Assembly: GCA_038231135.1 (NCBI GenBank)
Contig: JBBRLX010000001.1
Coordinates: forward strand, 160,001 to 224,000
Reading direction: 5' to 3'
DNA from: Candidatus Eiseniibacteriota bacterium
GTDB taxonomy: Bacteria > Eisenbacteria > RBG-16-71-46
Length of the DNA stretch: 64,000 bases
Below, piece by piece: positions 1-17,953 of the stretch. The notes under the pieces were generated by a model, which was not told the origin of the DNA, ran no database searches, and saw only the letters and a list, made by a program, of their open reading frames with translations. Position numbers and translations under genes: made by a program. How positions within the stretch are numbered: the stretch's first letter is position 1; each line of letters opens with the position of its first letter.

Positions 1-476
1 CGCCCGCCGCCGCCGACGCCGCGCCCGCCGCGGAATTCCGCATGGACTTCGGTCGTGAGCTGACGTTGCCGGGCCCTGGCCCGGTGTCGAGCACTCCCGC
101 GGCCACGGCGGCACCGGAACGCGCGGCGCCGCCGGCGTTGCGGCGTCCCGAGGTCGCGACGGCGCCCAGCGCCGCCGCCCGCCCCGCGGTCGCTCCGCCG
201 CCGCCGGCCCACCCGCCTCAGAGTTTCGCGCCGACGGTGGTCGCTCAGGCGCCGCCGTTGTCGCCCGCCATGCTCCAGCCCGAGCCGTTCCTCACCGGGG
301 TGCGTCCGCAGTCGGCGCCCGCGGCGGCGCCCGCGCGGCCGGGCCTTCACACTGAGCACGTGGAGCTGGCGCACGACACGAGCGCCGATGTGACCGAGGC
401 CGTGATTCCGATCACCATCGCGGCCGGAGCCTCGCGCGAGATCGTGCTGCGGATCGTCATCACCCATTCCGAATAG
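1..476 (+). CDS. C-terminal part of a Pro/Ala-rich protein, probably 5'-truncated by the window edge
   Basis: Low-complexity Pro/Ala linker followed by a short beta-rich tail (EAVIPITIAAGASREIVLRIVIT), stop at 476; start not resolved. Confidence 0.55.
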   Translation, partial: PAAADAAPAAEFRMDFGRELTLPGPGPVSSTPAATAAPERAAPPALRRPEVATAPSAAARPAVAPPPPAHPPQSFAPTVVAQAPPLSPAMLQPEPFLTGVRPQSAPAAAPARPGLHTEHVELAHDTSADVTEAVIPITIAAGASREIVLRIVITHSE

Positions 477-2168: not shown

Positions 2169-4646
2169 TCACCTGAACCCTTCGGCAGCCAGGCGTGGCC
2201 ACTTGAGTTCGTTCTTGGGTAGGGCCACCCCGGTTCGGACGGGATCCGTGAGCTGGCGCAGCACCACGACCGTGATGTCGTCGAGCTCGCGGTCGCTGAA
2301 CGCCCGTACTTCGGCCAGCAGCGCGGCCAGCACATCGGTCGCCCTGCGGCCCGCGTGGGCATCGAGCACCTGCCGCACGCCCTCGACGCCGAACAACTCG
2401 TCGCCCCGGCGCGCCTCGGTGAGGCCGTCGGTGTAGATCACCACCATATCGCCGGCCTCGAGCACCACGCTCTGGTCCGGATAGCCGGCGCCGAGGCTCA
2501 CCCCGAGCAGCACGCCGCCCGTGGTCAGCTCCTCGAAGCTGCCGTCCCTCCGGCGCAGCAGCGGGGGCGTCAGGCCGGCGTTCGCGAATTCGAGGCCGCC
2601 CCGGGCGACGTCGAACCGGGCGCACACCAGGCCCACGAACTTCTCCGGGCGGTCGAGGCCCACGAGTTCGCGATTCAGCGCCCCCAGCAGGGCACCCGGG
2701 GTCAGGCCGCGCCGCGCCTCGCTGCGGAACCGCGCCTGGACGCCGGCGAGCACGAGCGCCGCCGGCACGCCCTTGCCGGCCGCGTCGCCCACGGCCAGCG
2801 TGAACTCCCGGCCGGGTCCGGTGACGAAGTCGTAGTAGTCGCCGCCGACGCTCTCGCTCGACAGCGCGGCCGCCGCGCAATCGAGCGTGGGGTAGACCGG
2901 CGCCCGGCGCGGGAGCAGGTGCGCCTGGATCGCGCCCGCCTCCCGCAACTCCCGGTCGATGTGCACCCGGCCGTGGGCCGCGCGCCTCAGCTCGGCGTTC
3001 TCGAGGGTGACGCCGAGGTGGACTGCGAACCGTTCGAGCTCGAACAATTCGTGCCGGCCGAGCCACGAGCCGGCGAGCCGGCGGCCGAGCAGTGCGATCC
3101 CGCGCACGGGGTCGTGTCCGATCGGCAGCAGCCAGCGAACGCCGGCACGCTCGAGCGCCTCGCGACCGGCATCGACGTCGAGGTCCTCGATCGGGCGCAC
3201 GCCGGGGTGGTCCAGCGCCGCATGGGCGTGTGGGCCCAGCGGCGCCGACGCGATGCCGGCTGAGCCGGCGCGCACCACGACCCGGCCGTCGTCAGGGTCG
3301 AGCGCGACCAGCGCGCAGCCGTCGAGCCGCAGCGCGCGCTGCACCACGCGACAGGCGTCCTCGAGCACGAGATCGGTCGAGCGTTCGTGGACCTCGGGCT
3401 CGAGTGCGACCCACGCCGCGAGCGATTCCGGCTCCACGCCCGGGATGACGCGGCTGCCGAGCGATCGCATCCACGGCGTGAGCGGCCCGGTCACGCACGC
3501 GGCCAGCGTCACGAGCGCCAGGGCGCCGCCGGCGATGCCGGCGCCCAGGTCCGGCCACCAGGCCGCCGCGAGCCATTCGCCGCTCACGTACATTGCCGCG
3601 CCCGCCGCGGCCAGCAGCAGCGTCACCGCCCCGGCGCGCAGCGCCACCCGGAAGTCGAACACCGAATGGACGACCGCCGCCCACGCGAACGAGGCCGGGA
3701 CGAGCAGCGTGAGCAGCACGACGACCCGCTCGCCGGGCAGCGGCGCCGCGGGCGCGACGTTGCGCAGCAGTACGAACGTGGTGAGCGGCCCCGCGCCGAG
3801 CACGGTGCCGCCGAGCGCGACGCGCAGCCGCCGGCGGGTGTCGCCGGGCGCCGCGCGGACGTACTCGATGACGAACAGCACGAACGACGTGCCGATGCCG
3901 GCGGCGAACCACAGCGCGGCCGCGGTCTGGAGCGCGACATCGAGCGGCCCGATCACGAGTCCCGCCTGGCGGCCGAGCGGCACCGCCAGCGACACCGCGA
4001 ACAGCGTGGTCGCGACCACGTAGCCGAACCGCACCAGCGCCCGCAGTCCACCGTGCGGCGTCCGGTCGGGGAACAGCGCGAGGAAGTGCAGGAACAGCGC
4101 GGGGAGGTAGACGTTGACCGCGGCCAGCACGACGCCGTACGCGACGGTCGCCGCGCGGGACTCCCAGCGTGGCAATGGCGCCAGCCACACCGCAAATCCC
4201 ATGCACAACAGGAAGAACGCGCGCATCAGCGGGTCGCGGCGCTCGCTCCACACCCAGCCGCCGATCAGCACGAAGCCGGCGCCCACCAGCAGCAACAGCG
4301 CCATCATGCGCCGATCGCCGCCGGGCAGCGTGCCCGGGACGACCCACAGCGTGCGCCGCGTGCCGGCGCGATCGATCGTGACCGTAACCGGCCGGCCGGG
4401 CACGCAGTCATCGAGCAGGTGATCGGGGTCGCGTTCGGTCTCGGCGCCGGACACGGCCAGCAGGCGGTCGCCGGCCCGGGCGCCGGCGCGGGCGGCGGGG
4501 CTGCCGGGCAGCACGGTGACGACTTCGCCGTTGCGGGACAGGAACCCCGTATAGGCGCGGTGCGGCAGGCTCCAGGCGGACACCACGAGCAGCGCCGCGA
4601 TGGGAACGACGAGCCACGACAGCAGTGAGGAAGCGCTCCGATCCAT
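2169..4646 (-). CDS. Membrane PDZ-TM-GAF-SpoIIE (PP2C/RsbU-type) phosphatase
   Basis: [11 protein letters not shown] (PDZ), multiple TM helices, [38 protein letters not shown] before ATG 4646. Confidence 0.9.
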
Positions 4647-4769
4647 GGTGCCCTCCCGATGCCTCGCATGGAGGCTGGCGTATGGCGGGGGAGGTGTCAA
4701 GGACCGGGCGGGCCGCACCCGGCGACGGTGTTGCTTTGATGCGCCGCTATATTCAGGCTATTCTCGCGT

Positions 4770-4797
4770 TAAGCCGTCCGGGGTGTCTGGCCGATAC
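4770..4797 (+). promoter_or_regulatory. sigma28 (FliA/SigD)-type promoter upstream of csrA-flgM
   Basis: TAAG(4770-4773)-16 nt-GCCGATAC(4790-4797) versus consensus TAAA-N15/16-GCCGATAW. Confidence 0.7.
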
Positions 4798-4848
4798 GCA
4801 TGTCGTCGGGGAAGTGGTTCCCGGCGTCGGAGCGGAGGAAGCAGCACA

Positions 4849-5073
4849 ATGCTGGTCCTAACACGGAAGTTAGGCGAGAACATTCGGATCGGTGATTCGG
4901 TGAAGATCACCGTTCTGGAGGTGCGGTCCGGCCAGGTCAAGCTGGGGATCGAAGCTCCGCCCGAGGTCAAAGTTCACCGAGAAGAGATCTATGCCCGAAT
5001 CCAGGAAGAGAACCGCCGCGCGCAAGGGAAGGGTGAAAATCCCGGACCTGCGCGTGATCCCGAATCCCGGTAA
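4849..5073 (+). CDS. csrA: Carbon storage regulator CsrA
   Basis: [16 protein letters not shown]...[26 protein letters not shown]. Confidence 0.96.
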
Positions 5074-5206
5074 CACATCCCAGCCGACCATTCGGTGGGC
5101 CAAGGTGATGACCGCGCAGACACGCGTCGCCGAGGGCTACTACGATCGCGATGACGTGCGCAATCGGCTCCTGACCGAAGTGCTGACCGAGTTGATGAAG
5201 CACTGA
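5033..5206 (+). CDS. flgM: Minimal FlgM-like anti-sigma28 factor (57 aa)
   Basis: [18 protein letters not shown] resembles the FlgM C-terminal R..KV....I..G.Y motif; lies downstream of a sigma28 promoter in a fliA-containing cluster; GTG start inferred. Confidence 0.6.
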
Positions 5207-5369
5207 GGACATTCCAGCACTGTTCCGCCCGAGCCCGTCCCGCAACCGGGGCGGGCTTTGTCGCGTCCGCCGCGGTCGATGCGGCGTCGCGCACACTGCA
5301 ACGCCGCGCCGGCACGGCTTGGCCATTCCGGAAGCGTTTGCGATACTGGGCGTCCCGTATGGAGGCACC

Positions 5370-6596
5370 ATGACGCTCGTGAGCGCGCCACCCGCCGGAA
5401 CGCGCGCCCGGCTGCCACTGAACGCGCTGCTGCGCGCGGTGCTGCAGGATTCGGACGCCGGCATCCTCGTGCTCGACGCCCGGGGCCGGGTGCGCGAGAT
5501 CAATCCCGCCGCCGAACGCCTGCTGTCGGTACGGGCCGCCGACGTGCGCCTGACCGCGGCGCGGACCCTGATCCACACGGTGGTCGCCGGCGACGATCCG
5601 GTGGACGATGCGTTCCGCGCCGCGAGCTTCGAACGCGACACCGTGCTCGTGAACGGCGCCGGCATCGAAGTGCCGGTGGCGGTGCGCGGGTTCCGCCTCG
5701 GCCGGCCGCCATGGGTGGTGCTCACGCTCCGCGATCTCACCCAGAGCCGGCGCATGCAGCAGGAGCTGCGGCGCAACGAGCGGCTGGCGACGCTGGGGCA
5801 GCTGTCGGCGGGCGTGGCGCACGAGATCCGCAATCCGCTGGCCGGCATCGGCACCAGCGCCCAGGTGCTGCTGCGGCGGTTCGAGCCCCGCGACGACCGC
5901 GCGCGATTCGTCCAGGTGATTCTCGACGAGGTGGCGCGGCTCGATCGCATCGTCACGAGCCTGCTGGAGTACGCGCGGCCGCGCACCCCGGAACTCGCGG
6001 CCGCGGATCTCGAGTCGTGCGTGGCCAAGGTGCGGGAGCTCACTGCCGTCGAGGTCGCCGCCGCGGGCATCACGGTGGAGGTCGACGCGACGCCGAGGGT
6101 GCCGGCGGTGTACCTCGACGAGGACCTCATCACCCAGGTGCTGCTCAACGTGACGCTGAACGCCATTCATGCGATGCCGAACGGGGGCACGCTGCGCTAC
6201 GAGGTGCGCAAGATCCGGCGCCGTGCGGCGCCGCGCAGCCCGGGGCGCCGCGCCTCGGATGCGCGCGGCCGCGTGGGCGAGGCCCCGCCGCGCCGCTCGC
6301 CGGACGGCGACTGGATCCACTACCGGCAGGTGCGCGTGATCGATACCGGTATCGGCATCTCGCGCCACGTGCTGCCCAAGCTGTTCGATCCGTTCTTCTC
6401 CACCAAGCCGCGTGGTACCGGGCTCGGACTGTCGATCTGTCAGACCATCATGCAGGAGCACGGCGGCGCCATCGAGGTGGCGAGTCGCGAAGGCCGCGGC
6501 ACGACGGTGCTCCTCAGCTTCCCCCTGGAGAAACGCCATGGCGAGAGACGCGAGTCCTCCGGCCACGCAGACCGCGTACACGCTGCTCGTCGTTGA
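5370..6596 (+). CDS. PAS-domain sensor histidine kinase (NtrB/AtoS/FleS-like)
   Basis: PAS (GILVLDARGRVREINPAAERLL), AHEIRNPL, NVTLNAIHAM, DTGIG, FDPFFSTK, GTGLGL; SD GGAGG. Confidence 0.93.
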   Translation: MTLVSAPPAGTRARLPLNALLRAVLQDSDAGILVLDARGRVREINPAAERLLSVRAADVRLTAARTLIHTVVAGDDPVDDAFRAASFERDTVLVNGAGIEVPVAVRGFRLGRPPWVVLTLRDLTQSRRMQQELRRNERLATLGQLSAGVAHEIRNPLAGIGTSAQVLLRRFEPRDDRARFVQVILDEVARLDRIVTSLLEYARPRTPELAAADLESCVAKVRELTAVEVAAAGITVEVDATPRVPAVYLDEDLITQVLLNVTLNAIHAMPNGGTLRYEVRKIRRRAAPRSPGRRASDARGRVGEAPPRRSPDGDWIHYRQVRVIDTGIGISRHVLPKLFDPFFSTKPRGTGLGLSICQTIMQEHGGAIEVASREGRGTTVLLSFPLEKRHGERRESSGHADRVHAARR

Positions 6597-7962
6597 CGAC
6601 GAACCCGCGCTGCGCTTCGCGATCTCCGAGTGGGCGCGGGACGACGGGTTCACCGCGCTCGAGGCCGCGAGCGGCGCCGAGGCGCTCGAGCGGGTGCGCG
6701 AGCAGCCGGTCGACGTCGTCGTGCTCGATCTACGGCTCGGCGCCGAGGATGGCCTCGAGGTGCTGCGGCGCCTGCGCGACGAGGATCCGGCCCTCGAAGT
6801 GATCATGCTCACCGGTCACGGCACGGTGGAGCACGCGGTGCGGGCCACGCAGCTCGGCGCCTACGACTTCATGCTCAAGCCTCCGAACCTCGAGCACCTG
6901 GGCGTGGTGCTGCATCGCGCGCTCGAGCGCGCGCGGTTCCAGCGCGAGCTCAAGCACCTGCGCGCCGGCGCCGAGTCCCGGATGATCGGCGAGAGCGGCG
7001 GCTTGAAGAAGGTCCTGCAGCTGCTCGACCGGGCCGCCCGGCATCCGACGACCACGGTGTTGATCCTCGGCGAGACCGGCTCGGGCAAGGAGCTGATGGC
7101 GCGGCATCTCCACGGCCACGGCCCCCGTCCCGACGGACCGTTCATCGAGCTCAACTGCAGCGCAATCCCGGAGCAACTGCTCGAGAGCGAGCTGTTCGGT
7201 CACGAGCGCGGCGCATTCACCGATGCCAAGCGGGCCAAGAAGGGGCTGTTCGAGCTCGCGGACAAGGGCACGCTGTTCCTCGACGAGATCGGGGAGATGC
7301 CGGCCCAGCTGCAGGCGAAGCTGTTGCGCGTGCTGGAGAGCCACACGTTCCGCCGCGTGGGCGGTGACGCGGACGTCACCGTCGACCTGCGGGTGGTCGC
7401 CGCGACGCATCGGGATCTGCAGCAGCAGATCGGCGCGGGGAAGTTCCGCGAAGACCTGTTCTACCGGCTGAGCGGCGTGCCGATCCAGATGCCGCCGCTG
7501 CGTGACCGGGAGGAGGACATCGGCGCGCTGGCGGAGAATTTCATCCAGCGGTTCTGCGGTGAGCTGGGGCGGGCTCCGGCGAAGCTGCATCCGGACGCGC
7601 TGGCACTGATGAAGGCGTACGCGTGGCCGGGGAACGTGCGCCAGTTGAAGAATGTGGTCGAGCGCGTGCTGCTGCTCGAGGCCGACGACGACATCCTGCC
7701 CGGCCATCTGCCGCCCGAGTTCCACGCCGGAGGCCGCGCGAGCGCCGCCGGGGCGATCCCGCAGCCGTTTCCCGCCGGAGTCGTGGTGCCGCTCGCCGAG
7801 GTCGAGATGATGGCGATCCGTCACGCGCTCAGCGTGTGCCGGGGCAACAAGACCAAGGCCGCCAGCCTGCTCGGCATCTCCCGCCAGACCCTGCGCACCA
7901 AGCTCAACGATCCCGTGCTCGACGACGCCACCGACGACGAGGCCGACGCCACCGAGAACTGA
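6538..7962 (+). CDS. sigma54-dependent response regulator (REC-AAA+-Fis HTH)
   Basis: VVDDE receiver, GETGSGKE, ESELFGHERGAFTDA, FLDEIGE, WPGNVR, GNKTKAASLLGISR. Confidence 0.95.
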   Translation: MARDASPPATQTAYTLLVVDDEPALRFAISEWARDDGFTALEAASGAEALERVREQPVDVVVLDLRLGAEDGLEVLRRLRDEDPALEVIMLTGHGTVEHAVRATQLGAYDFMLKPPNLEHLGVVLHRALERARFQRELKHLRAGAESRMIGESGGLKKVLQLLDRAARHPTTTVLILGETGSGKELMARHLHGHGPRPDGPFIELNCSAIPEQLLESELFGHERGAFTDAKRAKKGLFELADKGTLFLDEIGEMPAQLQAKLLRVLESHTFRRVGGDADVTVDLRVVAATHRDLQQQIGAGKFREDLFYRLSGVPIQMPPLRDREEDIGALAENFIQRFCGELGRAPAKLHPDALALMKAYAWPGNVRQLKNVVERVLLLEADDDILPGHLPPEFHAGGRASAAGAIPQPFPAGVVVPLAEVEMMAIRHALSVCRGNKTKAASLLGISRQTLRTKLNDPVLDDATDDEADATEN

Positions 7963-8002
7963 AGTTCTTTGTTAGGGCGGGGCCCGCCGCGGGCGACCAG
8001 AA

Positions 8003-8061
8003 TCCCTCCGCATCCGCCATCCCCCCGCAACGAGGTTGGGCGGGCATCCCGCATCCCGTCC
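8003..8061 (-). ncRNA. Candidate CsrB/Rsm-like GGA-repeat sRNA core (boundaries unknown)
   Basis: Seven GGA motifs in 59 nt on the minus strand of a 346-nt intergenic gap, several as CGGGAUG/GCGGAUG; csrA lies 3 kb away. Confidence 0.35.
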
Positions 8062-8253
8062 CGGTCATTCTGCATGGCCGCGAGTCCGACCGCGGCACCT
8101 CGCACGGTCGTCGACCGCTCCGGCATCGCCTCGAGCTCCCAACCTAACTGAAGTGTTCGTAATGCCATGCCCGTGCGCCGTTAGGCAGGCGCCGGCGTGC
8201 CCGGAGCGTGGCGGAACCGTCTGTGTGTGGCGTAGTTCGCGGCTTCGGCGTGG

Positions 8254-8270
8254 CTGGCACGACGACTGCA
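8254..8270 (+). promoter_or_regulatory. sigma54 -24/-12 promoter
   Basis: CTGGCACGACGACTGCA with exact GG-N10-GC spacing, directly downstream of a sigma54 activator gene and upstream of the fliA operon. Confidence 0.75.
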
Positions 8271-8308
8271 AACTGTTCATGAGCCACCCCCTAAAACGGA
8301 GCCCATGA

Positions 8309-8695
8309 ATGCCCCACATCCTGATCGTGGAAGACGAGCCCTCGACCTCCTGGGCGCTATCGGAGGGCCTGTCCGACGACGGATTCACCATCGACGCGTT
8401 CCAGACCGCCGAAGCGGCCTGGGAGTGGCTCCGTCGTGGCCACAGCGATCTGGTGATCACGGACCTCCGGCTGCCGGGAATGAGCGGGATCGACCTCGCC
8501 CGCAAGCTGCAGCGCGGCCCGCACGCACAGCCCGTGATCCTCGTCACCGCCTACACGACTCCCGAACCGTCGTCCGAACTGGAACGCGCCGGGATCGTCG
8601 AGTGTTTCTCGAAGCCGTTTCAAATCGACCAACTGCGTCAGTCCGTGCACCGGGCGCTGGATGCTCAGCCACCGCGCAAACGGGCCCGTGCGTGA
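8309..8695 (+). CDS. Single-domain response regulator (receiver only)
   Basis: ILIVEDE, ITDLRLPGMSG, VTAY, SKPF. Confidence 0.9.
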   Translation: MPHILIVEDEPSTSWALSEGLSDDGFTIDAFQTAEAAWEWLRRGHSDLVITDLRLPGMSGIDLARKLQRGPHAQPVILVTAYTTPEPSSELERAGIVECFSKPFQIDQLRQSVHRALDAQPPRKRARA

Positions 8696-8706
8696 GGTTC
8701 GCCGAC

Positions 8707-9027
8707 ATGACAACACCCCGCCGCCCCCGTCTGACGCTCATTGCGTCTCCGCAGTCCGAATCGACCAACCCCGCCACGCGGATGGCGGCCCTGCTGGGCC
8801 GCTGCACGGAGCCGCAGCGCACGATGCTGGCGCTACGGCTCGTCGAGCGCCTGTCGTCGGTCGAAGCGGCCGCGACGCTCGGCATCACGGTCGGACAGTT
8901 CGAGCGCTCGTATCAGGCGCTGATCGCCGATCTGCGCCGCGCGATGGACCGCACGAACCGCGGCCGCTGGCAGACCGCCGAACGCCGCGCGTCGCTCGCG
9001 ATTGCGCGCCTGCGGAAGGCGTCATGA
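8707..9027 (+). CDS. Stand-alone sigma70 region-4-like HTH protein (106 aa)
   Basis: LLGRCTEPQRTMLALRLVERLSSVEAAATLGIT parallels FliA region 4 (LDQLPEQERLVVALYYYEHMTLNEIGRALGIS); no region 2. Confidence 0.6.
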   Translation: MTTPRRPRLTLIASPQSESTNPATRMAALLGRCTEPQRTMLALRLVERLSSVEAAATLGITVGQFERSYQALIADLRRAMDRTNRGRWQTAERRASLAIARLRKAS

Positions 9028-9275
9028 GCCCGCACACGAACTGGCTGACGCCCGCGGCCGATCCCGCCCGCACGATTCCGGCAACGGCGGACGAACGCGC
9101 GTGGACGATCGACAGCGCGCTGGGCTCGCTCGATTCCGAGCAGCGCCGCCTCGAGCGCCTGGGCTTCGAGCTGCCGCTCGCCCGGTGCCGCGAGCAGCGC
9201 CGGTTCTGGGAATTCGTCCACGCCGTGAGCGCGCTCGAGCCTCGCGCGGATTCGCGGCTGCGGAGGACCGCGTGA
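9024..9275 (+). CDS. Small helical hypothetical protein (83 aa)
   Basis: Translationally coupled on both sides (ATGA and GTGA overlaps). Confidence 0.6.
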   Translation: MSPHTNWLTPAADPARTIPATADERAWTIDSALGSLDSEQRRLERLGFELPLARCREQRRFWEFVHAVSALEPRADSRLRRTA

Positions 9276-10195
9276 CGCGTAAAGACGAGAAGCACCTGCC
9301 GCCGGAAGCACCGGGGCCTCGCGGCAAGCTGCGGCTCGTTGGTCACGCCGGTCACCCGTCGGAGCTCGATCGCGTCACGCATCCCGCGCAGTGGCAGCGG
9401 GCGCACGTGCCGACGATCGCGATCGCGAGCGGCAAGGGCGGAGTGGGCAAGAGCAATCTCGCCGCGAATCTGGCGGTGGCGCTGGGCGAGGCCGGGGCGC
9501 GCGTGCTGCTCGTCGACGCCGATCTCGCCCAGGCGAACCTCGACCTGCTGCTGGGCGTGCATCCGCGCTTCGACCTGCAGCACGTGCTGTCGGGCGAGAA
9601 GCAGCCCGAGGACATCGTCATCAAGGCTTCGAAGGGCGTGAAGCTCGTGCCGGCGTCGTCCGGCGTGCCGGAGCTCGCGGAACTCGACGACTACCGGCGC
9701 GAGTGCCTGCTGCGCGCACTGGGCTCGCTCGAGGTCGACACCGACATCGTGCTGCTCGACCTGGCGTCGGGAGTGTCGGGCGGAGTGACCGGGATCTGCC
9801 ATGCGGCCGACGAGGTGATCGTGGTCACCACGCCCGAGATGCCGGCGTTCTCGGACGCCTACGCGCTGATCAAGCTGTTGCACCAGCAGGGTCGCAAGCG
9901 GCCGCCGCATCTGGTCGTGAGCATGGCCGACACCGCCGAGGAAGCCCGCGAGACGGCGCACCGCATCCGCCTCGTCGCGCGCCGGTTCCTCACGGTGGAC
10001 ATCGATTTTCTTGGTTGTGTGCCGTTCGATCCCGCGGTCGCGCGGGCCGTGCGGCGCCAGGAACCCGTCCTTACCGCCTACCCCCAGTCCCCGGCAGCCG
10101 CGGCGTATCGCGAGCTGGCAGGACGGCTGTGGGAGGCGCAGGAGCCCGATCCGTCGATCCGGACTCCGCATGTACCGCAGCGTCTCGAAGCCTAA
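9272..10195 (+). CDS. flhG: FlhG/FleN-family MinD-like ATPase
   Basis: IASGKGGVGKSN, DADLAQANLDLLLG, VVTTPEMPAFSDAYALIK; immediately upstream of fliA. Confidence 0.85.
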   Translation: MTRKDEKHLPPEAPGPRGKLRLVGHAGHPSELDRVTHPAQWQRAHVPTIAIASGKGGVGKSNLAANLAVALGEAGARVLLVDADLAQANLDLLLGVHPRFDLQHVLSGEKQPEDIVIKASKGVKLVPASSGVPELAELDDYRRECLLRALGSLEVDTDIVLLDLASGVSGGVTGICHAADEVIVVTTPEMPAFSDAYALIKLLHQQGRKRPPHLVVSMADTAEEARETAHRIRLVARRFLTVDIDFLGCVPFDPAVARAVRRQEPVLTAYPQSPAAAAYRELAGRLWEAQEPDPSIRTPHVPQRLEA

Positions 10196-10204
10196 GGAGT
10201 CCCC

Positions 10205-11035
10205 ATGCCGCGAACCGCTCCGTCCATTCGTCGCACCCCGCCGCTCCGCATCACCCGTCGCGCCCCCGCGGTGGTAACGGCCCCGGCGCCACCGCCGGCG
10301 CCGCGCGCCACATCGTATTCGAAGGACGAGCTGCTCAAGCGGTTCGCGCCGCTGGTCCGCCACGTGGTGGAGCGCGTCGCGGCCACGCTGCCGAAGAACG
10401 TCGATCACGAGGACCTGTACTCCGCCGGAGTGCTTGGCCTGCTGGACGCGCATGCCAAGTTCGACACCGGCAAGGGCGTCAAGTTCGAGACCTACGCGGT
10501 GTGGCGCATCAAGGGCGCCGTGCTCGACCAGTTGCGGTCGCTGGACTGGGTGTCGCGGTCCATGCGGCGCAAGGCCCGGAACCTGGACGGCGTGACGCGC
10601 AAGCTCGACCAGAAGCTCGGCCGCGCCGCCTCCGAGGAGGAGGTCGCCCGCGAGATGAAGATGTCGACGCCCGATTTCTACCGGTTGCTCGATCACGTGC
10701 GCGGCGCCGTGCTGGTGTCGCTCGACGAGAGCCGCTCCGGCGAGGACCACGAGCCGTCGACGCTCGGCGACCATCTGCCGGATCCGTCGGTGGTGAACGT
10801 GGAGGCGCGGCTCGAGGAGGAGCAGTCGCGCGTCGTCGTGCTGCGGACGCTCGACCAGCTCCCGGAGCAGGAGCGGCTGGTCGTGGCGCTCTACTATTAC
10901 GAGCACATGACGCTGAACGAGATCGGCCGCGCGCTCGGCATCAGCGAGTCGCGGGTGTCGCAGGTGCACAGCCGCGCGATGCTGCGGCTCCGCATGCGGC
11001 TGCACAAGAACCTGCATGGAGAGATGGCCGCCTGA
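10205..11035 (+). CDS. fliA: FliA/WhiG family sigma28 factor
   Basis: DLYSAGVLGLLDA, KFETYAVWRIKGAVLDQLRSLDW.SRS.R, EIGRALGISESRVSQVHSRA. Confidence 0.95.
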   Translation: MPRTAPSIRRTPPLRITRRAPAVVTAPAPPPAPRATSYSKDELLKRFAPLVRHVVERVAATLPKNVDHEDLYSAGVLGLLDAHAKFDTGKGVKFETYAVWRIKGAVLDQLRSLDWVSRSMRRKARNLDGVTRKLDQKLGRAASEEEVAREMKMSTPDFYRLLDHVRGAVLVSLDESRSGEDHEPSTLGDHLPDPSVVNVEARLEEEQSRVVVLRTLDQLPEQERLVVALYYYEHMTLNEIGRALGISESRVSQVHSRAMLRLRMRLHKNLHGEMAA

Positions 11036-11430
11036 TGGCCACACAAGGAGGTCCGCTGCTGCTGGTGAGTCCGGCACTCGCGTTTCGCGACCGGATGCTG
11101 CAGCTGGCGGAGCGCATCGAGTCGGCCGGAACGACGGATGCCGCCGAATTGCGGCAGGCTGTCGCGACCTGGTGGCTCGAGCAGCAGGACTGGGAGCGCA
11201 CGCTCGGCGCCCGGCTCGAGATGCACCACGAGATCAACAACGCGCTGGTGGGTGTACGCGGTCACGCGCAGCTTCTGCTCCACGGTTCCGCCGGGAGCGA
11301 GCCGAAGGTGCGCGATCGTCTGGAGGTGATCATCCGTGAATCAGGACGCATCGAAAAAGCCGCGCAGCAGATCCGGGAAGTCCGCAACAGCCTCCCCGGA
11401 TCCGATCCGCCGTCGTCGCACGCAGCCTGA
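11035..11430 (+). CDS. HisKA (DHp)-only protein, 131 aa
   Basis: H-box HHEINNALVGVRG with no HATPase_c domain; TGATG coupling to fliA. Confidence 0.7.
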   Translation: MATQGGPLLLVSPALAFRDRMLQLAERIESAGTTDAAELRQAVATWWLEQQDWERTLGARLEMHHEINNALVGVRGHAQLLLHGSAGSEPKVRDRLEVIIRESGRIEKAAQQIREVRNSLPGSDPPSSHAA

Positions 11431-12484
11431 CTCGCGGAGCCTGTCCGCCGCCGCGCCGGGACGCCGGGCAGACCCCCGGTCCGCCGATCGCGCCGCTGCC
11501 GGGACGCACGGCGAGACGGTGGCGCCCGCCGCCCGCCGCACCGACACGCATGGGGTGCCGCGGGAGCGTCGCGGGGATGGCGCGGTTCCGGCGGCGTCCG
11601 AACGCCGTCGCGCGTCGCGGTTCCTGTGGTCCGCGTGCGAGGCGCTGCTCGCCGCGGCGGCCGAGCCGCGCTCGCTGAATCGCGCGCTCGACATGCTCAA
11701 GCAGGCGTTCGAATGCGATGGCGTCGCGCTGCACGCGCTCGCGCCGTCGGGGAAGCTCGAGCCGTGGAGCACGCGGGGCGCGTGGAAGAGCACCGCCGGC
11801 GACCTCCGCGACTGCATGAGCGTGCCGCTGTTCCGCGGCGACGAGCGGGTGGGCACGCTCGACCTGCGCGCGGCGCCGGGACAGAGCTGGCGTCCGGGGC
11901 AGCTCGGCCTGATTCGCACCGCCGCCGGTGCGCTGGGTGCGGCGCTCGGCGCGCGCATCGAGCTGCAGCGGCTCCGCACCCTGCCCGGCCGCGATTCGCT
12001 CACCGGCCTGGCGGACGCCCGCGCGCTCCACACCCGTCTCGGCGAGGAGCTGACGCGCTCCCACCGGCACGGCATGCCGGTGTCGCTGGTCGTGCTCGAT
12101 CTCGACCATCTCGCGGGCGTCAACACCCGCTACGGCCGCGAGACCGGCGACGCGGTGCTGTCGGAGACCGCACTGGTGCTCAAGCTGCAGCTGCGCGAGA
12201 CGGACCTGGTGGCGCGGCTCGAGGGCGATTCGTTCGGAATGATGCTGCCCGAGACCGACCGTGATTCGGCGCTGCGCTGCGCCGATCGCGTGCGGCGGGC
12301 GGTTGAGGAGCACCGGTTCGCGCGGATCGGTCACATCAGCGCCAGTGCCGGCGTCGCGGCGTGCCCGGCCGACGGCAGCGAAGCCATCGAATTGATCGAA
12401 CTCGCCGAGCGTGCGCTGGGACTCGCGAAGAAGGCGGGCCGGCGGCGCGTGATGACCGTGGCGTCCCCCGGACCGGTTCATTGA
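11336..12484 (+). CDS. GAF-like plus degenerate GGDEF domain protein (start uncertain)
   Basis: DSLTGL, LDLDHL..VNTRYG..TGDAVL, RETD I-site, active site reads EGDSF. Confidence 0.85.
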   Translation: MNQDASKKPRSRSGKSATASPDPIRRRRTQPDSRSLSAAAPGRRADPRSADRAAAGTHGETVAPAARRTDTHGVPRERRGDGAVPAASERRRASRFLWSACEALLAAAAEPRSLNRALDMLKQAFECDGVALHALAPSGKLEPWSTRGAWKSTAGDLRDCMSVPLFRGDERVGTLDLRAAPGQSWRPGQLGLIRTAAGALGAALGARIELQRLRTLPGRDSLTGLADARALHTRLGEELTRSHRHGMPVSLVVLDLDHLAGVNTRYGRETGDAVLSETALVLKLQLRETDLVARLEGDSFGMMLPETDRDSALRCADRVRRAVEEHRFARIGHISASAGVAACPADGSEAIELIELAERALGLAKKAGRRRVMTVASPGPVH

Positions 12485-14235
12485 TGACCGGCCCCGAGCT
12501 CCACGTGGCCCATGACGCCCACACGGAGCCCGTGGACCCGGACGATCGCCCCGCGCGTATTCTCGTCGTCGACGACGAGGCGACGGTGGCGGAGATCTTC
12601 CAGGAGTTCCTCACCGACCAGGGCCACGAGATCGCGGTCGCATCGACCGGCGAGCAGGCCCAGCAGATGATCCCGCAGTTCAATCCCGACATCGTGCTCA
12701 CCGACATCAACCTGCCGGGCACGTCGGGGCTCGAGGTGATGCGGTTCGCGAAGCGGCACGATCCGGAGACCGCGGTGATCGTGGTCACGGGCCACGCCTC
12801 GGCCGCGACCGCGATCGATGCGCTGCGCCAGGGCGCGTACGACTACATCACGAAGCCGTTCGATCTCGACGAGGTGCACCAGATCGTCGAGCGCGGACTC
12901 GCGAACCGCCGGCTGCGTTCGATCAACCGCCGGCTGGTCGAGGAGCTGCGCCAGAAGAACGAGATCCTCGAGTACCACGAGCAGGAGCTGCGCGAGCGTG
13001 TCGAGCAGGCCACCGCCCAGCTCAAGCGGCTGTACGACGTCGGCATGGAGGTCAGCGCCGACCTCGAGCTGGCGCCGCGGCTGCGCCTGATCGCCGAGAA
13101 GAGCGCCGTGCTGTGCGGCGCGGCATCGGCGATCGTGTTCCTCGTCCAGCCGGAGCAGAACGACTGCTGGGCCGCCGCCATTCACGGCCTCGAGCTGCCG
13201 CCGCTCGAAGACGGCCAGGTCCGCTGGCTGCACCGCGACGAGGCGCTGGCGCCGGCGGTGCTGGAACCGCGCACGCTGCGCCGCGCGGTCGCGCCCGGGG
13301 CGCCGGCCGAACAGGTGGCGGGCATCGCGGGCTTGAGCTTCCGCACGCTGCTCGCCGCGCCGATGATCGCGGACGGTAACGTGATCGGCATGGTCGCGCT
13401 GTTCGACAAGCCGAACGGGTTCAGCGAGGACGATCAGAGCTTCCTCGAGCTGTTCGCGACGCAGACCGCGATCGCGGTGCGCAACTCGCAGCTCTACGAG
13501 GACACCAAGAGCCTCGACCGTCTCAAGTCCGAGTTCGTGGCCGTGGTGTCGCACGAGATCCGCACGCCACTCACGTCGATCAAGGGCTCGATCGAGCTGC
13601 TGTCGGACCCACGATACTTCCCGAGCACCGAGCAGCAGGCCAAGCTGCTGACGATCGCGAGCGCGAACACCGAGCGGCTGCTGGTGCTGATCAAGGACAT
13701 CCTCGACTTCTCCAAGCTCGACTCGTCGTCGATGCGGCTCAACCAGGAGCTGCAGCCGCTCGAGCCGGTGATCGAGCACGCGATCCACAATCTGCGGACG
13801 CTGCTCGAGGAACATCGCATCGAGCTGCAGCTGCGGATCGAACCGGGACTGCCCCAGGTCGCGATCGACGCGGGACGCGTGATGCAGGTGCTCACGAACC
13901 TGGTCTCGAACGCGATCAAGTTCTCGCCCGCGGGCGCCGCCATCGAGGTCCGTGCCGAACAGGTCGGCGGCGAGCTGCAGGTGTGCGTGCGCGATCACGG
14001 CGAGGGCATCGCACCCCAGGACCTGACGAAACTGTTCCGCAAGTTCTCGCAGATCGACTCCGCCGCGACCCGCAAGGCGGGCGGCGCGGGTCTCGGTCTC
14101 GTGATCTGCAAGGGCATCGTCGAGCAGCACGGCGGCCGGATGTGGGTCGAGAGCGAAGTGGGCGTGGGCAGCCAGTTCTACTTCACGCTGGCTCCGTCCG
14201 GGCGCACCGCGCTCGAACCGGCGAACCGACCCTGA
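12484..14235 (+). CDS. Hybrid REC-GAF-histidine kinase
   Basis: ILVVDDE receiver, GAF, SHEIRTPL, NLVSNAIKF, DHGEG, GAGLGL. Confidence 0.93.
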   Translation: MTGPELHVAHDAHTEPVDPDDRPARILVVDDEATVAEIFQEFLTDQGHEIAVASTGEQAQQMIPQFNPDIVLTDINLPGTSGLEVMRFAKRHDPETAVIVVTGHASAATAIDALRQGAYDYITKPFDLDEVHQIVERGLANRRLRSINRRLVEELRQKNEILEYHEQELRERVEQATAQLKRLYDVGMEVSADLELAPRLRLIAEKSAVLCGAASAIVFLVQPEQNDCWAAAIHGLELPPLEDGQVRWLHRDEALAPAVLEPRTLRRAVAPGAPAEQVAGIAGLSFRTLLAAPMIADGNVIGMVALFDKPNGFSEDDQSFLELFATQTAIAVRNSQLYEDTKSLDRLKSEFVAVVSHEIRTPLTSIKGSIELLSDPRYFPSTEQQAKLLTIASANTERLLVLIKDILDFSKLDSSSMRLNQELQPLEPVIEHAIHNLRTLLEEHRIELQLRIEPGLPQVAIDAGRVMQVLTNLVSNAIKFSPAGAAIEVRAEQVGGELQVCVRDHGEGIAPQDLTKLFRKFSQIDSAATRKAGGAGLGLVICKGIVEQHGGRMWVESEVGVGSQFYFTLAPSGRTALEPANRP

Positions 14236-14324
14236 TTCCCGATCCGGAATCGGGGCGCCGCCGGCGCAATTCCGCGGCGGTGCGTTCGCGTCCGGACTCG
14301 GCACGGGACCTCGCCGCGGAGCGC

Positions 14325-15344
14325 GTGCTGCTGATCGACTGCCTCGATTCCCAGGGCAGCCGGACCATCGACGCCGCGGCCCGCGGCCGCGCGCTCGCGC
14401 TGTGCGCGGGCGAGGTCGAGATCCTGACGATCGATCTGCGCGACGGCGCGCCCGCGCCCGCCCGCTCGCTCGCCGCCCAGCTCGCCGGGGCCTGTGCTCG
14501 CCTGACGCCGGACCGGCTGGTGATCGCGTCCGCGCTGCCGTGCGGCCGCGACATCGTGCGCGCGATGCCGCGGCCGGCGGCCGCCGTGTGGTGGCCGACC
14601 GGGCTGCCGCAGGCCCCGCGGCCATCCCGGGCATGGACGCCGTTTGGATCGGGCGCGGCGGCGGTGCCGTCGCTGCACGATTGCGATGGCGCCGGGACGG
14701 CGGCGGACCCCGGCGTCGCGACTGCGGCGGCGCTCGACTGGGCGGTTCACGAGGACTCCGGCGTCGCGCGGGCCCGGATCACGCTGTGGGACGGCCGCTA
14801 CCTGCTCGCCCCGGTGCCGCTGTCCGGGGTGCCCGGGCACGAACTGCTGCGCGCGTTCGCGGCGCTCGATGCGCGCTGGAATCGCGTCGAGCTCGTGGTG
14901 CTCGGTGCCGCCGACCCCGCGTTCCATCATGCGGCGCGGCGCCTCGGCATCGGGGCCCGCCTGCACTTCGCGGGCGCCGCCACCGCGGATGCCGAGCTGA
15001 CCTGGCTCGCGAGCGCCGCGGGCGCGATGTTCGCGACCGACGCCCCGGTCGCCGCCTCGCTGATCGTACGCGCGATCGCGTGCGGTACGCCGGTGTTCGT
15101 CGCCGGCTCCCGGCTCGCGAACGCGGTGAATCCGTGGCTCGCCCACCACGGCACGCTCCCGGCGTCGTGGCCGCTCGATCCCGAGCCGTTGCGGGTACGG
15201 CTGGAGTCGCTGCTCGACCACGATCACGAGCTGGAGGTGGCGACCCGCCAGGGCCGCGCGATCGCGGCGCGCCACCAGACGCGGGCGCTGTCGGTGCGCC
15301 TGGCGGTGGCCCTCGGCCGCCCGCCCCGGAGCCGCGCCGCCTGA
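14325..15344 (+). CDS. Divergent GT-B (GT4-like) glycosyltransferase-fold protein (start uncertain)
   Basis: LLRAFAAL..LVVLG..LGIGARLHFAG..RAIACGTPV pattern. Confidence 0.55.
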   Translation: MLLIDCLDSQGSRTIDAAARGRALALCAGEVEILTIDLRDGAPAPARSLAAQLAGACARLTPDRLVIASALPCGRDIVRAMPRPAAAVWWPTGLPQAPRPSRAWTPFGSGAAAVPSLHDCDGAGTAADPGVATAAALDWAVHEDSGVARARITLWDGRYLLAPVPLSGVPGHELLRAFAALDARWNRVELVVLGAADPAFHHAARRLGIGARLHFAGAATADAELTWLASAAGAMFATDAPVAASLIVRAIACGTPVFVAGSRLANAVNPWLAHHGTLPASWPLDPEPLRVRLESLLDHDHELEVATRQGRAIAARHQTRALSVRLAVALGRPPRSRAA

Positions 15345-15450
15345 CATCGGGCGAACCAGGTCCCCGCGGCCGATGCGCATCGATGTACGTTGTCGCGGCC
15401 GTCGCTTCGCCCTATCGTGCACGCCACCACTTCATGTACCGGAGGATCTC

Positions 15451-16389
15451 GTGCGCATTCTGGTGACCGGGGGGGCCGGGTTCATCGGCTCGAGCCTCGT
15501 GGATCGATGGGTGACGGACGGGCATCAGGTCGCGATCCTCGACAACCTGTCGACCGGCAGGCGTGACTATGTGAATCCGCGCGCGACGTTCCTCGAGCTC
15601 GACATCGTGGATGCGCCGGCGGTCGATCGCGCGATCGGCGAGTTCCGGCCCGAGGTGGTGAGCCATCACGCGGCGCAGATGGACGTGCGCCGGTCGGTGC
15701 TCGATCCGGCGTTCGACGCCCGCACCAACGTGCTCGGCTCGATCGCCCTGCTCGAGGCGTGCGCGCGCCACGGCGTCCGCAAGGTGATCTACGCATCGAC
15801 GGGCGGCGCGATCTACGGCGAAGGCCGCTCGCTGCCGGCCGCCGAAGATCATCCCATCCATCCCGAATCGCCGTATGGCGCGAGCAAGTATGCGGTCGAG
15901 CTGTATCTGAAAATCTGGCAGCAGCTCCATGGGCTCGACTTCACGGTGCTGCGCTATCCCAATGTATTCGGCCCCCGCCAGAACCCTCACGGCGAGGCGG
16001 GGGTGAATGCCATCTTCATCGGGCTCATGCTCGCCGGCCAGCGGCCGCGCATCTTCGGCCACGGTGACGCGGTGCGCGACTACCTGTTCGTCGACGACGT
16101 CGTCGCGGCGAACGTGCTGGCGCTCGGCAGCGCGGGGGGCGAGGTGATGAATCTCGGCACCGGCGTCCCGACCTCGGTGACCGACATCGTGCGTGAGCTG
16201 AACGGCGTGCTCGGCACGAACCTCGAGCCGATCCAAGAGCCCGACCGGCCCGGCGAGATCCAGCGCATCTACCTCGACGCCGCCCGCGCGAACCGGTTGC
16301 TGGGATGGACGCCCACGGTGACGTTCCGCGAGGGCTTGCGGCGCACCGTGGACTGGGCGCGCGCGCGCGGGGCGCAGATCAGCGCGTGA
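15451..16389 (+). CDS. NAD-dependent epimerase/dehydratase (UDP-glucose 4-epimerase-like)
   Basis: ILVTGGAGFIGS, DNLSTG, PYGASK, RYPNVFGPRQ; SD GGAGG before GTG. Confidence 0.93.
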   Translation: MRILVTGGAGFIGSSLVDRWVTDGHQVAILDNLSTGRRDYVNPRATFLELDIVDAPAVDRAIGEFRPEVVSHHAAQMDVRRSVLDPAFDARTNVLGSIALLEACARHGVRKVIYASTGGAIYGEGRSLPAAEDHPIHPESPYGASKYAVELYLKIWQQLHGLDFTVLRYPNVFGPRQNPHGEAGVNAIFIGLMLAGQRPRIFGHGDAVRDYLFVDDVVAANVLALGSAGGEVMNLGTGVPTSVTDIVRELNGVLGTNLEPIQEPDRPGEIQRIYLDAARANRLLGWTPTVTFREGLRRTVDWARARGAQISA

Positions 16390-17953
16390 GGTGCAGCTCG
16401 ATCAAGCCCACGGCGGAGCGGTCGGCGGCGCCCTTCACGTGCCCGAGCTGATCGATCCAGCGGTAGCCGCCGGTCAGCTGCACGTTGACGCCGCTCGCCG
16501 GCCACCAGCGCACGCCCAGTTCGAGCTGGCGGGTGGTTTCGACCACGCCTTCGAATTGCGCCGAATCCACGATCGGCGACCGGGGCAGGAACGGCTCGTT
16601 CAGATCGTTCTCGCCTTTGTCGTAACGGGTGACGCGCGCGTTGAGCTGCAGCGCGGGGCTCAGGTCCCACGCGCCGCGCACGCGGATGCGGCGCGCGTCC
16701 GGCGCGAACGGGAATCCCAGCGACTGACCCTGGGCGACGTACGACCGCCCGAAGAACGACGTGTAGACGAACCGCGTGACGCGCGTGTACTCGCCGCCCC
16801 AGGTGAGCCGCGTGTCGCCGACGGCGCCGACGCCGTCGTAGCCGAGCTGGAACGCGTACTTGTTCGGGTTCCGGCCGCTCTTCGCGTGCAGGTCGTCGAT
16901 CAGCAGCTCGCCGTAGACGCGGGTGCCGTTCGCGATGCGCCAGCTGGCGTCGAACGCCGACAGGATGTTGTTGCGGTGGGCGATCAGCGAATCCGGCTCC
17001 TTCTGGAGGTCCAGTCGCTGCACCAGCACGTAGGGGATCGCGCCCAGCACGTAGAGCGGCTGCCAGCCCGGCCACTTGTAGCGCGCGGCCTCGGTGACGC
17101 CGAGTCGCAGGTTGTCGTGGGGCTGCCACTCGATGCGATGGGCGGCGAGCTGCTCGCCTTCGGCCTGTTCCACGGTCGCCGACAGCGCCATGAAATCGAG
17201 GCGCAGCGCCTCGAGGTGCGCGCGCATCATCAGGCCGACCATCGACGGCGCGGTGCTCGACAGCACGAGCGACCCTTCCTCGCCCGGTCCCCAGTTCCAG
17301 CGGCTCTCGCCGAACTGCACCGCCCAGCGCTGCCGGTCGCCGGTGTAGGCGATATACGTCTCCTCCGTCAGCACCACGAAATCGTTGTTCGGAACGATCG
17401 GGTCCGCGAACGACCGGGCGCTGTCGAATTGGCCCGCGACGAATCTCGAGTAGACCAGCCAGCGATCGAGCGCCACCGCGGCGCGCGTCTCGGAGCCCGA
17501 GCCATTGAGGAACCGCCGGCCATGCTGGTCGATCTGCGCGCTGCCCGAGATGCCGGTCGAGATCTCGAACCGCTGGTCGTCCTCGGAGCGCTGGTAGAGC
17601 CGCGGGGTCGAGTGGTAGGCGGGATCCGGCGTGTACCAATCGGCCGCATCGCGACCGAACGCCCGTTCGATCCGCGCCACCGACATGCGGTAGCGGGGAT
17701 CCGGATTCTGTAACGGAGCGCCGGTGCCCATGAGATCGAGGAGCTGATAGGGACGGCTATTGATGTGGGGCAGCAGGATGCGCCCTTGCAGCGGGGTGGG
17801 GTCGAGCGTATCGAGGATGCGGAACTCGGCCTCGAGCGGATCACCTACCGACAGGTAGTCGAACGGAGTGGCGCGTGCGCGGGTGGGCGCGAGACACATC
17901 ACGATCGCCGCGAGGGCGGTCAGCACACGAGGGAGGTATGACGGATGTCGCAT
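16379..17953 (-). CDS. Capsule assembly Wzi-like outer-membrane beta-barrel protein
   Basis: Signal peptide; FGESRWNWGPG..GSLVLS, AAHRIEW, LGVTE, YGELLIDD motifs. Confidence 0.7.
   Translation of the reverse strand: MRHPSYLPRVLTALAAIVMCLAPTRARATPFDYLSVGDPLEAEFRILDTLDPTPLQGRILLPHINSRPYQLLDLMGTGAPLQNPDPRYRMSVARIERAFGRDAADWYTPDPAYHSTPRLYQRSEDDQRFEISTGISGSAQIDQHGRRFLNGSGSETRAAVALDRWLVYSRFVAGQFDSARSFADPIVPNNDFVVLTEETYIAYTGDRQRWAVQFGESRWNWGPGEEGSLVLSSTAPSMVGLMMRAHLEALRLDFMALSATVEQAEGEQLAAHRIEWQPHDNLRLGVTEAARYKWPGWQPLYVLGAIPYVLVQRLDLQKEPDSLIAHRNNILSAFDASWRIANGTRVYGELLIDDLHAKSGRNPNKYAFQLGYDGVGAVGDTRLTWGGEYTRVTRFVYTSFFGRSYVAQGQSLGFPFAPDARRIRVRGAWDLSPALQLNARVTRYDKGENDLNEPFLPRSPIVDSAQFEGVVETTRQLELGVRWWPASGVNVQLTGGYRWIDQLGHVKGAADRSAVGLIELHLTR

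Follow-up and report, generated by a model that had tools for sequence, protein, structure and literature searches.

In the polar flagellar hierarchy of Pseudomonas, Vibrio and Campylobacter, a kinase and a sigma-54 activator lead to expression of flhA-flhF-flhG-fliA and thence to the FlgM step. A stretch of 64,000 nucleotides from Candidatus Eiseniibacteriota bacterium (assembly GCA_038231135.1, contig JBBRLX010000001.1, positions 160,001 to 224,000; the whole stretch is hereafter called the window) holds regulators of such a hierarchy in twelve co-oriented genes spanning 4849-14235. A preliminary description of the sequence had reported csrA, a flgM-like gene, a kinase with a sigma-54 activator, flhG and fliA as one block, and all of these genes are present. 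We put at roughly 60% the probability of the full reading, in which the block is the regulatory remainder of a deleted flagellar cluster and is retained for predicted sigma-28 control of surface-motility and adhesion genes.

Flagellar loss with retention of regulators is known from Legionella. L. longbeachae retains FliA, FleN, FleR/FleS and FlgD, with the bordering genes conserved (PMC2824747); L. oakridgensis retains FliA and FlgM, and L. israelensis and L. londiniensis also FleQ and FleN, the FlgM of L. oakridgensis being reported in the same review as degraded rather than exported (PMC5655016). As in Legionella, structural genes have been deleted at our locus within conserved borders, sigma-28, an anti-sigma factor, FlhG/FleN and a kinase/sigma-54 activator are kept, several losses are proposed, and flgM is sigma-28 dependent, in Eisenbacteria by a predicted site. 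Unlike in Legionella, this is the majority state across an uncultured phylum-level group and is accompanied by a graded series of partial deletions; moreover, the window's regulators are contiguous with csrA, a GGDEF gene and a hybrid kinase gene, and their conserved targets are predicted to be mglA and type IV pili. The type of event was already known, and what is new is its repetition across a phylum-level group together with the predicted MglA/type IV pilus output. In host-associated Pseudomonadota, flagellar loss has been described as beginning with the regulators (10.1101/2025.11.22.689265); Eisenbacteria do the opposite, with regulators kept, in most members, after repeated independent losses.

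Sigma factors of the FliA family also have roles apart from flagella. WhiG acts in Streptomyces sporulation and, in Rubrobacter and Actinoplanes, on type IV pili (PMC12871210); the window's FliA likewise belongs to this family, lacks a flagellar role and has type IV pilus targets, predicted in our case. WhiG2 of Actinomycetota differs in being controlled by RsiG and cyclic di-GMP (c-di-GMP) and in lying away from a flagellar cluster, whereas the window's FliA sits at the old flagellar locus with an FlgM-like partner and a sigma-54 cascade (no search for RsiG was made). In Bdellovibrio bacteriovorus, FliA is the global attack-phase regulator (PMC3627812), recognizes a near-identical consensus (TTAAG-N16-CCGATA) and has a broad non-flagellar regulon beside flagella, the state that we infer for the ancestor of Eisenbacteria; Bdellovibrio, however, has kept its flagellum and its regulon was mapped experimentally, whereas that of Eisenbacteria is predicted only. 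Our literature search, whose coverage left out most subscription journals, found no paper on this locus in Eisenbacteria.

The source genome (G000; 4.09 Mb in 97 contigs, 93.45% complete) appears to lack a flagellum altogether. Profile searches of the whole assembly gave no match to flagellin, FlhA, rod proteins, FliW, FliG, CheW or MotA_N, the same searches giving matches in known flagellated genomes, and 31 of 34 flagellar proteins from flagellated relatives had no tblastn match in it. The remaining three matches (FliI at 34% identity, FlgD at 47% over only 58 amino acids, and FlhF at 27%) are read as a non-flagellar ATPase, an immunoglobulin-like domain and a paralogue of the signal recognition particle (SRP) type. 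Thus, the lack of flagellar structural genes first noticed in the window extends to the entire assembly, and the complete set elsewhere in the genome that would have made this an ordinary dispersed regulon was not found in an assembly of this completeness. A CheR-like gene does occur, at C38:7283-8068, despite the lack of a CheW match. One flagellated relative, G104, gave no MotA_N match though its flagellar cluster is otherwise full, which gaps in gene calling or a divergent stator may explain.

Comparison with flagellated relatives indicates how the block arose. In G104, the cluster begins with SpoIIE-PDZ, flgFGAHI, SLT, flgNKL, fliW, csrA, fliC, fliS, fliD, flgM and PilZ, continues with a kinase, a sigma-54 activator, sigma4-only, REC, TPR and a second kinase/activator pair, and ends with flgBC, fliE-K, flgDE, fliL-R, flhBAF, flhG, fliA, HDOD and GGDEF; removal of the structural genes from this order yields the order of the window. 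The clusters of G126, G043 and G129 are similar, that of G026 differing around csrA, and the PDZ-SpoIIE gene of the left border adjoins flgF in four flagellated genomes (on the same strand in G104 and G126, divergently in G043 and G129). Because flagellated relatives share both the borders and the gene order, with the same flanks and regulators enclosing some 35 flagellar genes, the block almost certainly arose by deletion from an ancestral flagellar cluster. This synteny agrees with the view in the preliminary description that the regulators are retained flagellar ones. The genes of the block and its borders, in window coordinates, are these:

1..476, plus strand: 3' part of mglA, Ras-like GTPase of 385 amino acids; the gene starts 682 nt before the window (C1:159319-160476)
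2169..4646, minus strand: PDZ-membrane-GAF-SpoIIE phosphatase (Pfam); left border of the ancestral flagellar cluster
4849..5073, plus strand: csrA (PF02599, 91.5 bits; TIGR00202 above cut-off)
5033..5206, plus strand: FlgM-like anti-sigma factor, 57 amino acids from GTG; orthology by position and profile
5370..6596, plus strand: PAS-HisKA-HATPase histidine kinase; H box AHEIRNP intact
6538..7962, plus strand: sigma-54 activator with REC, AAA+ and Fis helix-turn-helix; GAFTDA loop and receiver Asp present
8309..8695, plus strand: stand-alone REC (Pfam; ratio of non-synonymous to synonymous rates, dN/dS, 0.13)
8707..9027, plus strand: sigma-70 region-4-only (sigma4-like) protein; weak match, E 0.004
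9024..9275, plus strand: small protein of no known family (dN/dS 0.30)
9272..10195, plus strand: FlhG/FleN-type MinD/ParA ATPase; Walker A GKGGVGKS intact
10205..11035, plus strand: FliA/WhiG sigma-28 (TIGR02479, 244.2 bits, cut-off 189.6; Pfam regions 2, 3 and 4)
11035..11430, plus strand: HisKA-only protein; conserved His in HEINN
11336..12484, plus strand: GAF-GGDEF protein, start uncertain; active site EGDSF, RxxD kept
12484..14235, plus strand: REC-GAF hybrid histidine kinase; right border of the ancestral cluster

Receiver Asp residues are intact in the block, and the genome has rpoN (C1:247898). The PAS kinase is the genome's best match to the flagellar-cluster kinase of G104. The gene that we presume to be mglA from sequence likeness (its product has no Pfam match at 1e-5) is both a predicted sigma-28 target and a conserved neighbour of the locus.

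Partial deletions occur in a graded series. G040 retains fliW and a fliC remnant (a flagellin fragment of 251 amino acids at L060 3009-3764, flanked by csrA and flgM; the genome has no FlhA), G071 fliW and a fliJ-like remnant, family 8 fliW-csrA (fliW in three genomes), and family 7 fliN-flhG-fliA, with csrA elsewhere; family 4 keeps only the kinase, the activator, fliA and, in part, flhG. In this series FliW, FlhF and sometimes CsrA or FlhG are dispensable, while FliA, the GGDEF protein, the hybrid kinase and usually the kinase/activator pair are almost never lost. Across the phylum sample of 201 genomes, FliA scores above cut-off in 187, FlhA above cut-off in 66, and flagellin is found in 69; a hand tally of the presence tables showed that FliA is retained in 70 of the 72 genomes of good quality (at least 90% complete and at most 5% contaminated) that are without flagellin. 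A FastTree phylogeny of 35 loci, built on four of five genes (the kinase was excluded because several best matches were not the orthologue), recovers the families and contains five sister pairs of lost and kept clusters with local support of 0.996-1.0. If only loss is allowed, this implies at least six separate losses, that of the window's lineage included, and 11 on the midpoint root.

Could the block instead be a decaying relic, or could flagellar genes have been missed? An assembly that is 93.45% complete in 97 contigs and a decayed GGDEF active site would fit such a view. The deletion joints, however, are located within one contig, and the compact order recurs in near-family loci of dozens of relatives, among them long-contig assemblies without flagellin. 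Mean identity to the window's FliA in near-family loci is 80%, versus 64% for TrpA. Pooled dN/dS values (up to 13 close pairs per gene, with trpA, at 0.23, for comparison) span 0.05-0.34 over the 12 block genes: besides the two values listed above, they are 0.05 for csrA, 0.06 for fliA, 0.15 each for kinase, flhG and GGDEF, 0.16 for both flgM and the activator, 0.21 for the hybrid kinase, 0.24 for sigma4-only and 0.34 for HisKA-only. By this measure the block is under purifying selection rather than a decaying relic, and we regard decay or faulty assembly as extremely improbable.

The promoters of the block can be compared across related loci in the same way (in the counts for csrA and REC promoters, some genomes were entered twice). 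The sites are the following:

4736..4764, plus strand: sigma-70-like site TTGATG-N17-TATTCT, predicted basal promoter adjoining the sigma-28 site on its upstream side; pattern found in 32 of 55 loci
4769..4797, plus strand: sigma-28 promoter of csrA-flgM, TTAAG-N16-GCCGATA (TTAAG 4769-4773, GCCGATA 4790-4796); relatives mostly have N15
5233..5259, plus strand: possible terminator downstream of flgM, a GC-rich hairpin and a short run of T; similar hairpins seen by eye in relatives
5319..5347, plus strand: sigma-70-like site TTGGCC-N17-GATACT for the kinase-activator pair, from conservation of the -10 box
8255..8270, plus strand: sigma-54 promoter TGGCAC-N6-TGCA; predicted to transcribe the genes from REC to fliA and further

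The two promoters highlighted in the preliminary description are conserved: the sigma-54 site is found ahead of REC in 79 of 80 loci, with a fairly loose pattern, and a sigma-28 site precedes csrA in 48 of 67 under a strict one, the misses being mostly TGAAG variants or loci in which csrA follows fliW. A consensus scanner run over 4600-5500 called no sigma-70 promoter or terminator, and these features rest on conservation only. As in the polar hierarchy, flagellated Eisenbacteria have sigma-54 sites before flgF, flgB and flhB, and also before the gene that follows the activator; their sigma-28 sites lie before fliC and, in G129, before flgN. Since both kinds of site were already there, it is likely that the deletion joined flhG-fliA to a pre-existing sigma-54 promoter and csrA to a pre-existing sigma-28 promoter.

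This bears on a second explanation, the one originally proposed, in which the block is a self-sustaining loop, newly rewired and extended by added parts, that serves a non-motility programme in the manner of WhiG. Some features agree with it: the HisKA-only gene and the open reading frame (ORF) at 9024-9275 are lineage-limited (the former in three families; the latter, among examined loci, restricted to the window's family and one sister family), are under selection and were not found in the flagellated loci examined; the GGDEF site of the window protein has decayed to EGDSF, which does not meet the GG(D/E)EF pattern of an active diguanylate cyclase, whereas it is intact (GGEEF/GGDEF) in flagellated relatives and varies within the window's family; and the excess of sigma-28 motifs is larger in the window's family than in most flagellated genomes. 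Yet, of the supposed additions, only HisKA-only may be one, the sigma4-only and GGDEF genes being part of complete flagellar clusters and hence ancestral, and the order from sigma-54 to FliA is inherited rather than rewired, since sigma-54 sites drive the structural and flhB..fliA operons of flagellated relatives. The postulated return from FliA to the two-component system is not supported by the loci themselves, where a sigma-28 site before the kinase occurs in 0 of 58 and a TATACT-like -10 box in 43 of 58 (0 of 58 on the reverse strand). Without a sigma-28 site before the kinase the circuit would not close, and a linear cascade with negative feedback by FlgM and CsrA is predicted. The mglA site, moreover, is likely older than the loss of the flagellum, and we judge a newly rewired loop improbable.

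Under the deletion reading, the cascade would work as follows. A sigma-70 promoter would express the kinase and the sigma-54 activator; the phosphorylated activator would open the sigma-54 promoter that deletion had placed next to flhG-fliA; and FliA would then transcribe some 25-30 promoters, that of csrA-flgM among them, with mglA, type IV pilus parts, adhesins and some polysaccharide and kinase genes as predicted targets. FlgM and CsrA would damp this output, making the cascade linear with negative feedback and not self-amplifying. In the absence of an export apparatus, FlgM would have to be relieved by another route, most likely, though this is speculative, by proteolysis.

A live sigma-28 regulon is very probable from the distribution of predicted sites. 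The genome-wide motif scan proposed in the preliminary description was made with a weight matrix trained on promoters of relatives, the window being excluded, and returned, at a threshold of 16 bits, 29 sites in upstream non-coding sequence with the right spacer versus 0-3 with any of 19 others; at 17 bits there were 32 sites in non-coding sequence versus 1-3 in mononucleotide shuffles. An excess of TAAAG/TCAAG-N15-GCCGATA-type sites in the genome was thereby confirmed. Over 44 genomes, the strict pattern gave 643 matches versus 334 at the control spacer (277 versus 76 in 15 genomes of the window's family, 44 versus 9 in family 7). We scanned the 66 genes downstream of predicted sites for families. 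The top score belongs to a minor-pilin operon (fimT-like, pilV-like and FG-GAP; the first two names are our assumption from sequence likeness), and the other predicted targets include a PilB-type ATPase with REC, plus Hpt and a hybrid kinase, mglA, two PilT-type ATPases, a DUF11 protein of 4,100 amino acids, adhesins, glycosyltransferase, Wzy_C and WcaJ genes, four more kinases and DUF6982. The genome has two type IV pilus clusters with PilM and secretin.

Six predicted targets, most of them picked for their relation to pili, were followed through their orthologues. The mglA site, TCAAG-N15-GCCGATAC, scores 20.4 bits in the source genome. With 13 bits as the threshold, it is found in 21 of 30 loci, among them all 16 from the two nearest families and three of six flagellated ones (G021, G129 and G104); the same threshold is reached by the DUF6982 site in 16 of 30 loci and by the fimT-like site in 6 of 18, flagellated G026 among them, and the control spacer gave 0 for each target followed. 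Since flagellated lineages also have the mglA site, the non-flagellar output is likely to predate the losses of the flagellum, and such pleiotropy of sigma-28 would explain retention of the block without new wiring. With mglA and type IV pilus genes as the best-conserved predicted targets, the programme looks like surface motility or adhesion rather than the non-motility one first suggested, and we favour this, with some confidence, as the main retained job. The result is a testable prediction of regulon and lifestyle, pilus-based surface motility or adhesion, for a group whose physiology is scarcely documented.

Two side observations concern these targets. The predicted mglA leader is about 190-270 nt long in the window's family and about 55-125 nt elsewhere (L177:1070-1319), with no Rfam match. 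DUF6982 (L170:799-1248, contig C22) has a confident predicted fold (predicted local distance difference test score 88) of apparently two small beta-barrels; the model has no Foldseek match at E<=0.001, the best weak likeness being to the Sm/Hfq fold (Z 6.6, root-mean-square deviation 3.3, 63 aligned), and an RNA-binding role is a lead only.

A number of results weigh against retention for pilus-based motility. Many predicted targets have no relation to pili (glyoxylate-shunt enzymes, rsmA, glutamine synthetase, accB and a penicillin-binding protein), and the four major-type pilins lack sites of 16 bits or more; pilA on C31 has only a sigma-28 site of 13.5 bits, together with a sigma-54 site. 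G026, G028 and family 7 are without the mglA site. At 13 bits or more, the pilT site is found in only 3 of 20 loci, five of these loci being paralogues, and the pilB site in 4 of 29; a weaker site at the main pilB (at least 8 bits, 127-170 nt upstream) occurs in 13 of 13 family genomes versus 0 of 13 for the control, with a threshold set after the data were viewed. We rejected wcaJ as a core target, its orthologue being present in 1 of 33 genomes and without a site there. No excess of the strict pattern over the control spacer was seen in G036, G011, G061, G082 and G081, and csrA was not found in two of five distant genomes. Related loci are kin and thus not independent samples, and the tree was built on locus genes and is not a species tree, its deep nodes being weak and in disagreement with the database order.

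In a third explanation, the deletion origin is the same and FliA is a broad life-stage regulator, of dispersal or stationary phase, as in Bdellovibrio, with pili one output of many and not the reason for retention. Its predicted targets do include hybrid kinases, cell-wall enzymes, metabolic genes and proteins of unknown function, DUF6982 equals the pilus genes in its conservation as a target, and 92 of 140 attack-phase promoters of Bdellovibrio have a FliA box (PMC3627812). Against this, the top-scoring site lies at the minor-pilin operon and the most widely conserved one at mglA, although a comparison of six targets, mostly pilus-picked, does not cleanly separate the two views; we consider the life-stage account rather unlikely. 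A bolder form of the pilus account is a tentative possibility: across Eisenbacteria, the sigma-54/sigma-28 cascade may already have been the master switch of MglA-steered type IV pilus surface motility, the flagellum then being lost at least six times with the cascade untouched and the checkpoint replaced by a shortened FlgM with protease-tethering motifs, plus FlhG, HisKA-only and a c-di-GMP-binding GGDEF remnant as new inputs. If true, this would be a natural replicated experiment on a checkpoint that outlived the machine it monitored.

A fourth explanation holds that the block is retained to run a second, mobile flagellar cluster carried by about one-third of the window's family. Flagellin is indeed found in 28 of the family's 86 genomes, about half of all flagellin-positive genomes have a different cluster elsewhere, and sigma-28-like sites precede its flagellin and flgM. 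All four second clusters examined (G032, G143, G069 and G090; L306-L316), however, have their own FliA, 38-40% identical to the window's, their own sigma-54 activator and FlhF, and three of the four FlgM; family 7, in addition, keeps fliA with flagellin in 0 of 41 genomes. Control of a second cluster is thus a very improbable reason for retention. Flagellins of the second clusters are about 24% identical to the resident type; the second cluster occurs patchily in families that lost the resident one and was possibly re-acquired. G152:C70 (L085) carries a third flagellar/chemotaxis locus, of 56% GC, whose FliA is 39% identical to the window's.

If the block is a deletion remainder, it has lost the export apparatus, FlhF, FliW and flagellin, which are the normal inputs to FlgM, FlhG and CsrA in the polar hierarchy and the Bacillus CsrA-FliW-flagellin checkpoint (PMC13443453), and the question arises of how the three are now controlled. 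The FlgM-like protein of the window has no match to PF04316 (Pfam FlgM), and a profile of the alignment, run against solved structures, retrieved no FlgM chain (seven unrelated matches, E>=0.69). Nevertheless, of 61 aligned orthologues, 27 do match PF04316 at E<=0.1 (best E 8e-6), that of flagellated G026 exceeds the FlgM cut-off (28.8 versus 25 bits), orthologues in flagellated loci sit after fliD, and the window protein, whose start is uncertain (another possible ATG lies at 4991), retains C-terminal helices of the sigma-binding type. We therefore take the ORF to encode a putative FlgM-type anti-sigma factor, which would bind FliA. The route for its export is absent, the genome having no FlhA, FlhB, FliP, FliQ, FliR or FliF.

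The short, variable N-terminus of the FlgM-like protein carries an LRVV- or KVVPF-like motif in 26 of 62 orthologues versus 2 of 124 other frames, the KVVPF-like form having been added to the pattern after the sequences were viewed. These motifs may resemble the ClpX-tethering motifs of SspB, a likeness that serves as a lead only. Basic N-terminal extensions with an LxLV/LRI-like stretch, resembling that of the FlgM-like protein, are also seen in sigma4-only (8707-8750), FlhG (9272-9350) and FliA (10205-10260).

The window's FlhG is 46% identical (E 3e-76) to the product of the gene between flhF and fliA in G104. Its partner FlhF is absent, the sole match in the genome being the SRP-type paralogue at 27%, as is the C-ring (no FliG, FliM or FliN in the genome). 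Of the CsrA-FliW-flagellin checkpoint, CsrA is present, and FliW and flagellin are absent from the genome. Few Eisenbacteria CsrAs are predicted to act on the flagellin leader of B. subtilis (PMC13443453). In 38 of 57 loci, the 32 nt that follow the kinase -10 box contain an ANGGA motif (window 5350-5370), versus 412 of 3056 gene starts genome-wide; CsrA control of kinase translation is possible, although the motif overlaps the ribosome-binding site and the loci are kin rather than independent.

No convincing CsrB/RsmZ-like RNA emerged when non-coding sequence was searched for stretches rich in ANGGA, and Rfam gave no match across 12 target loci (83 kb). The second-best sigma-28 site (L168:3588-3769; C49:3769, minus strand) precedes a stretch of about 145 nt that contains several GGA motifs and a terminator. 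As a candidate CsrA-titrating RNA this stretch was not confirmed: its fold z-score is -1.3, none of five relatives has a matching site, and 60 family genomes gave only short, chance-level DNA matches; it may encode a short peptide.

For annotation, matches to fliA, flgM or flhG in these genomes do not indicate swimming. On the 3' side of the block, window 14286-17953 holds glycosyltransferase-like, epimerase and wzi genes, and sugar-transferase or wzi genes come after the block in most families, which suggests a long-standing link between block and capsule genes. A three-member family of small proteins without a Pfam match (C28:47290-47790, C14:31855-32328 and C16:84351-84866) includes one member with a 19-bit sigma-28 site, divergent from a pilT-like gene. 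From window position 63515 to 64000 and onward (C1:223515-226012) lies a second PAS kinase followed by a response-regulator gene, with rpoN 24 kb further on.

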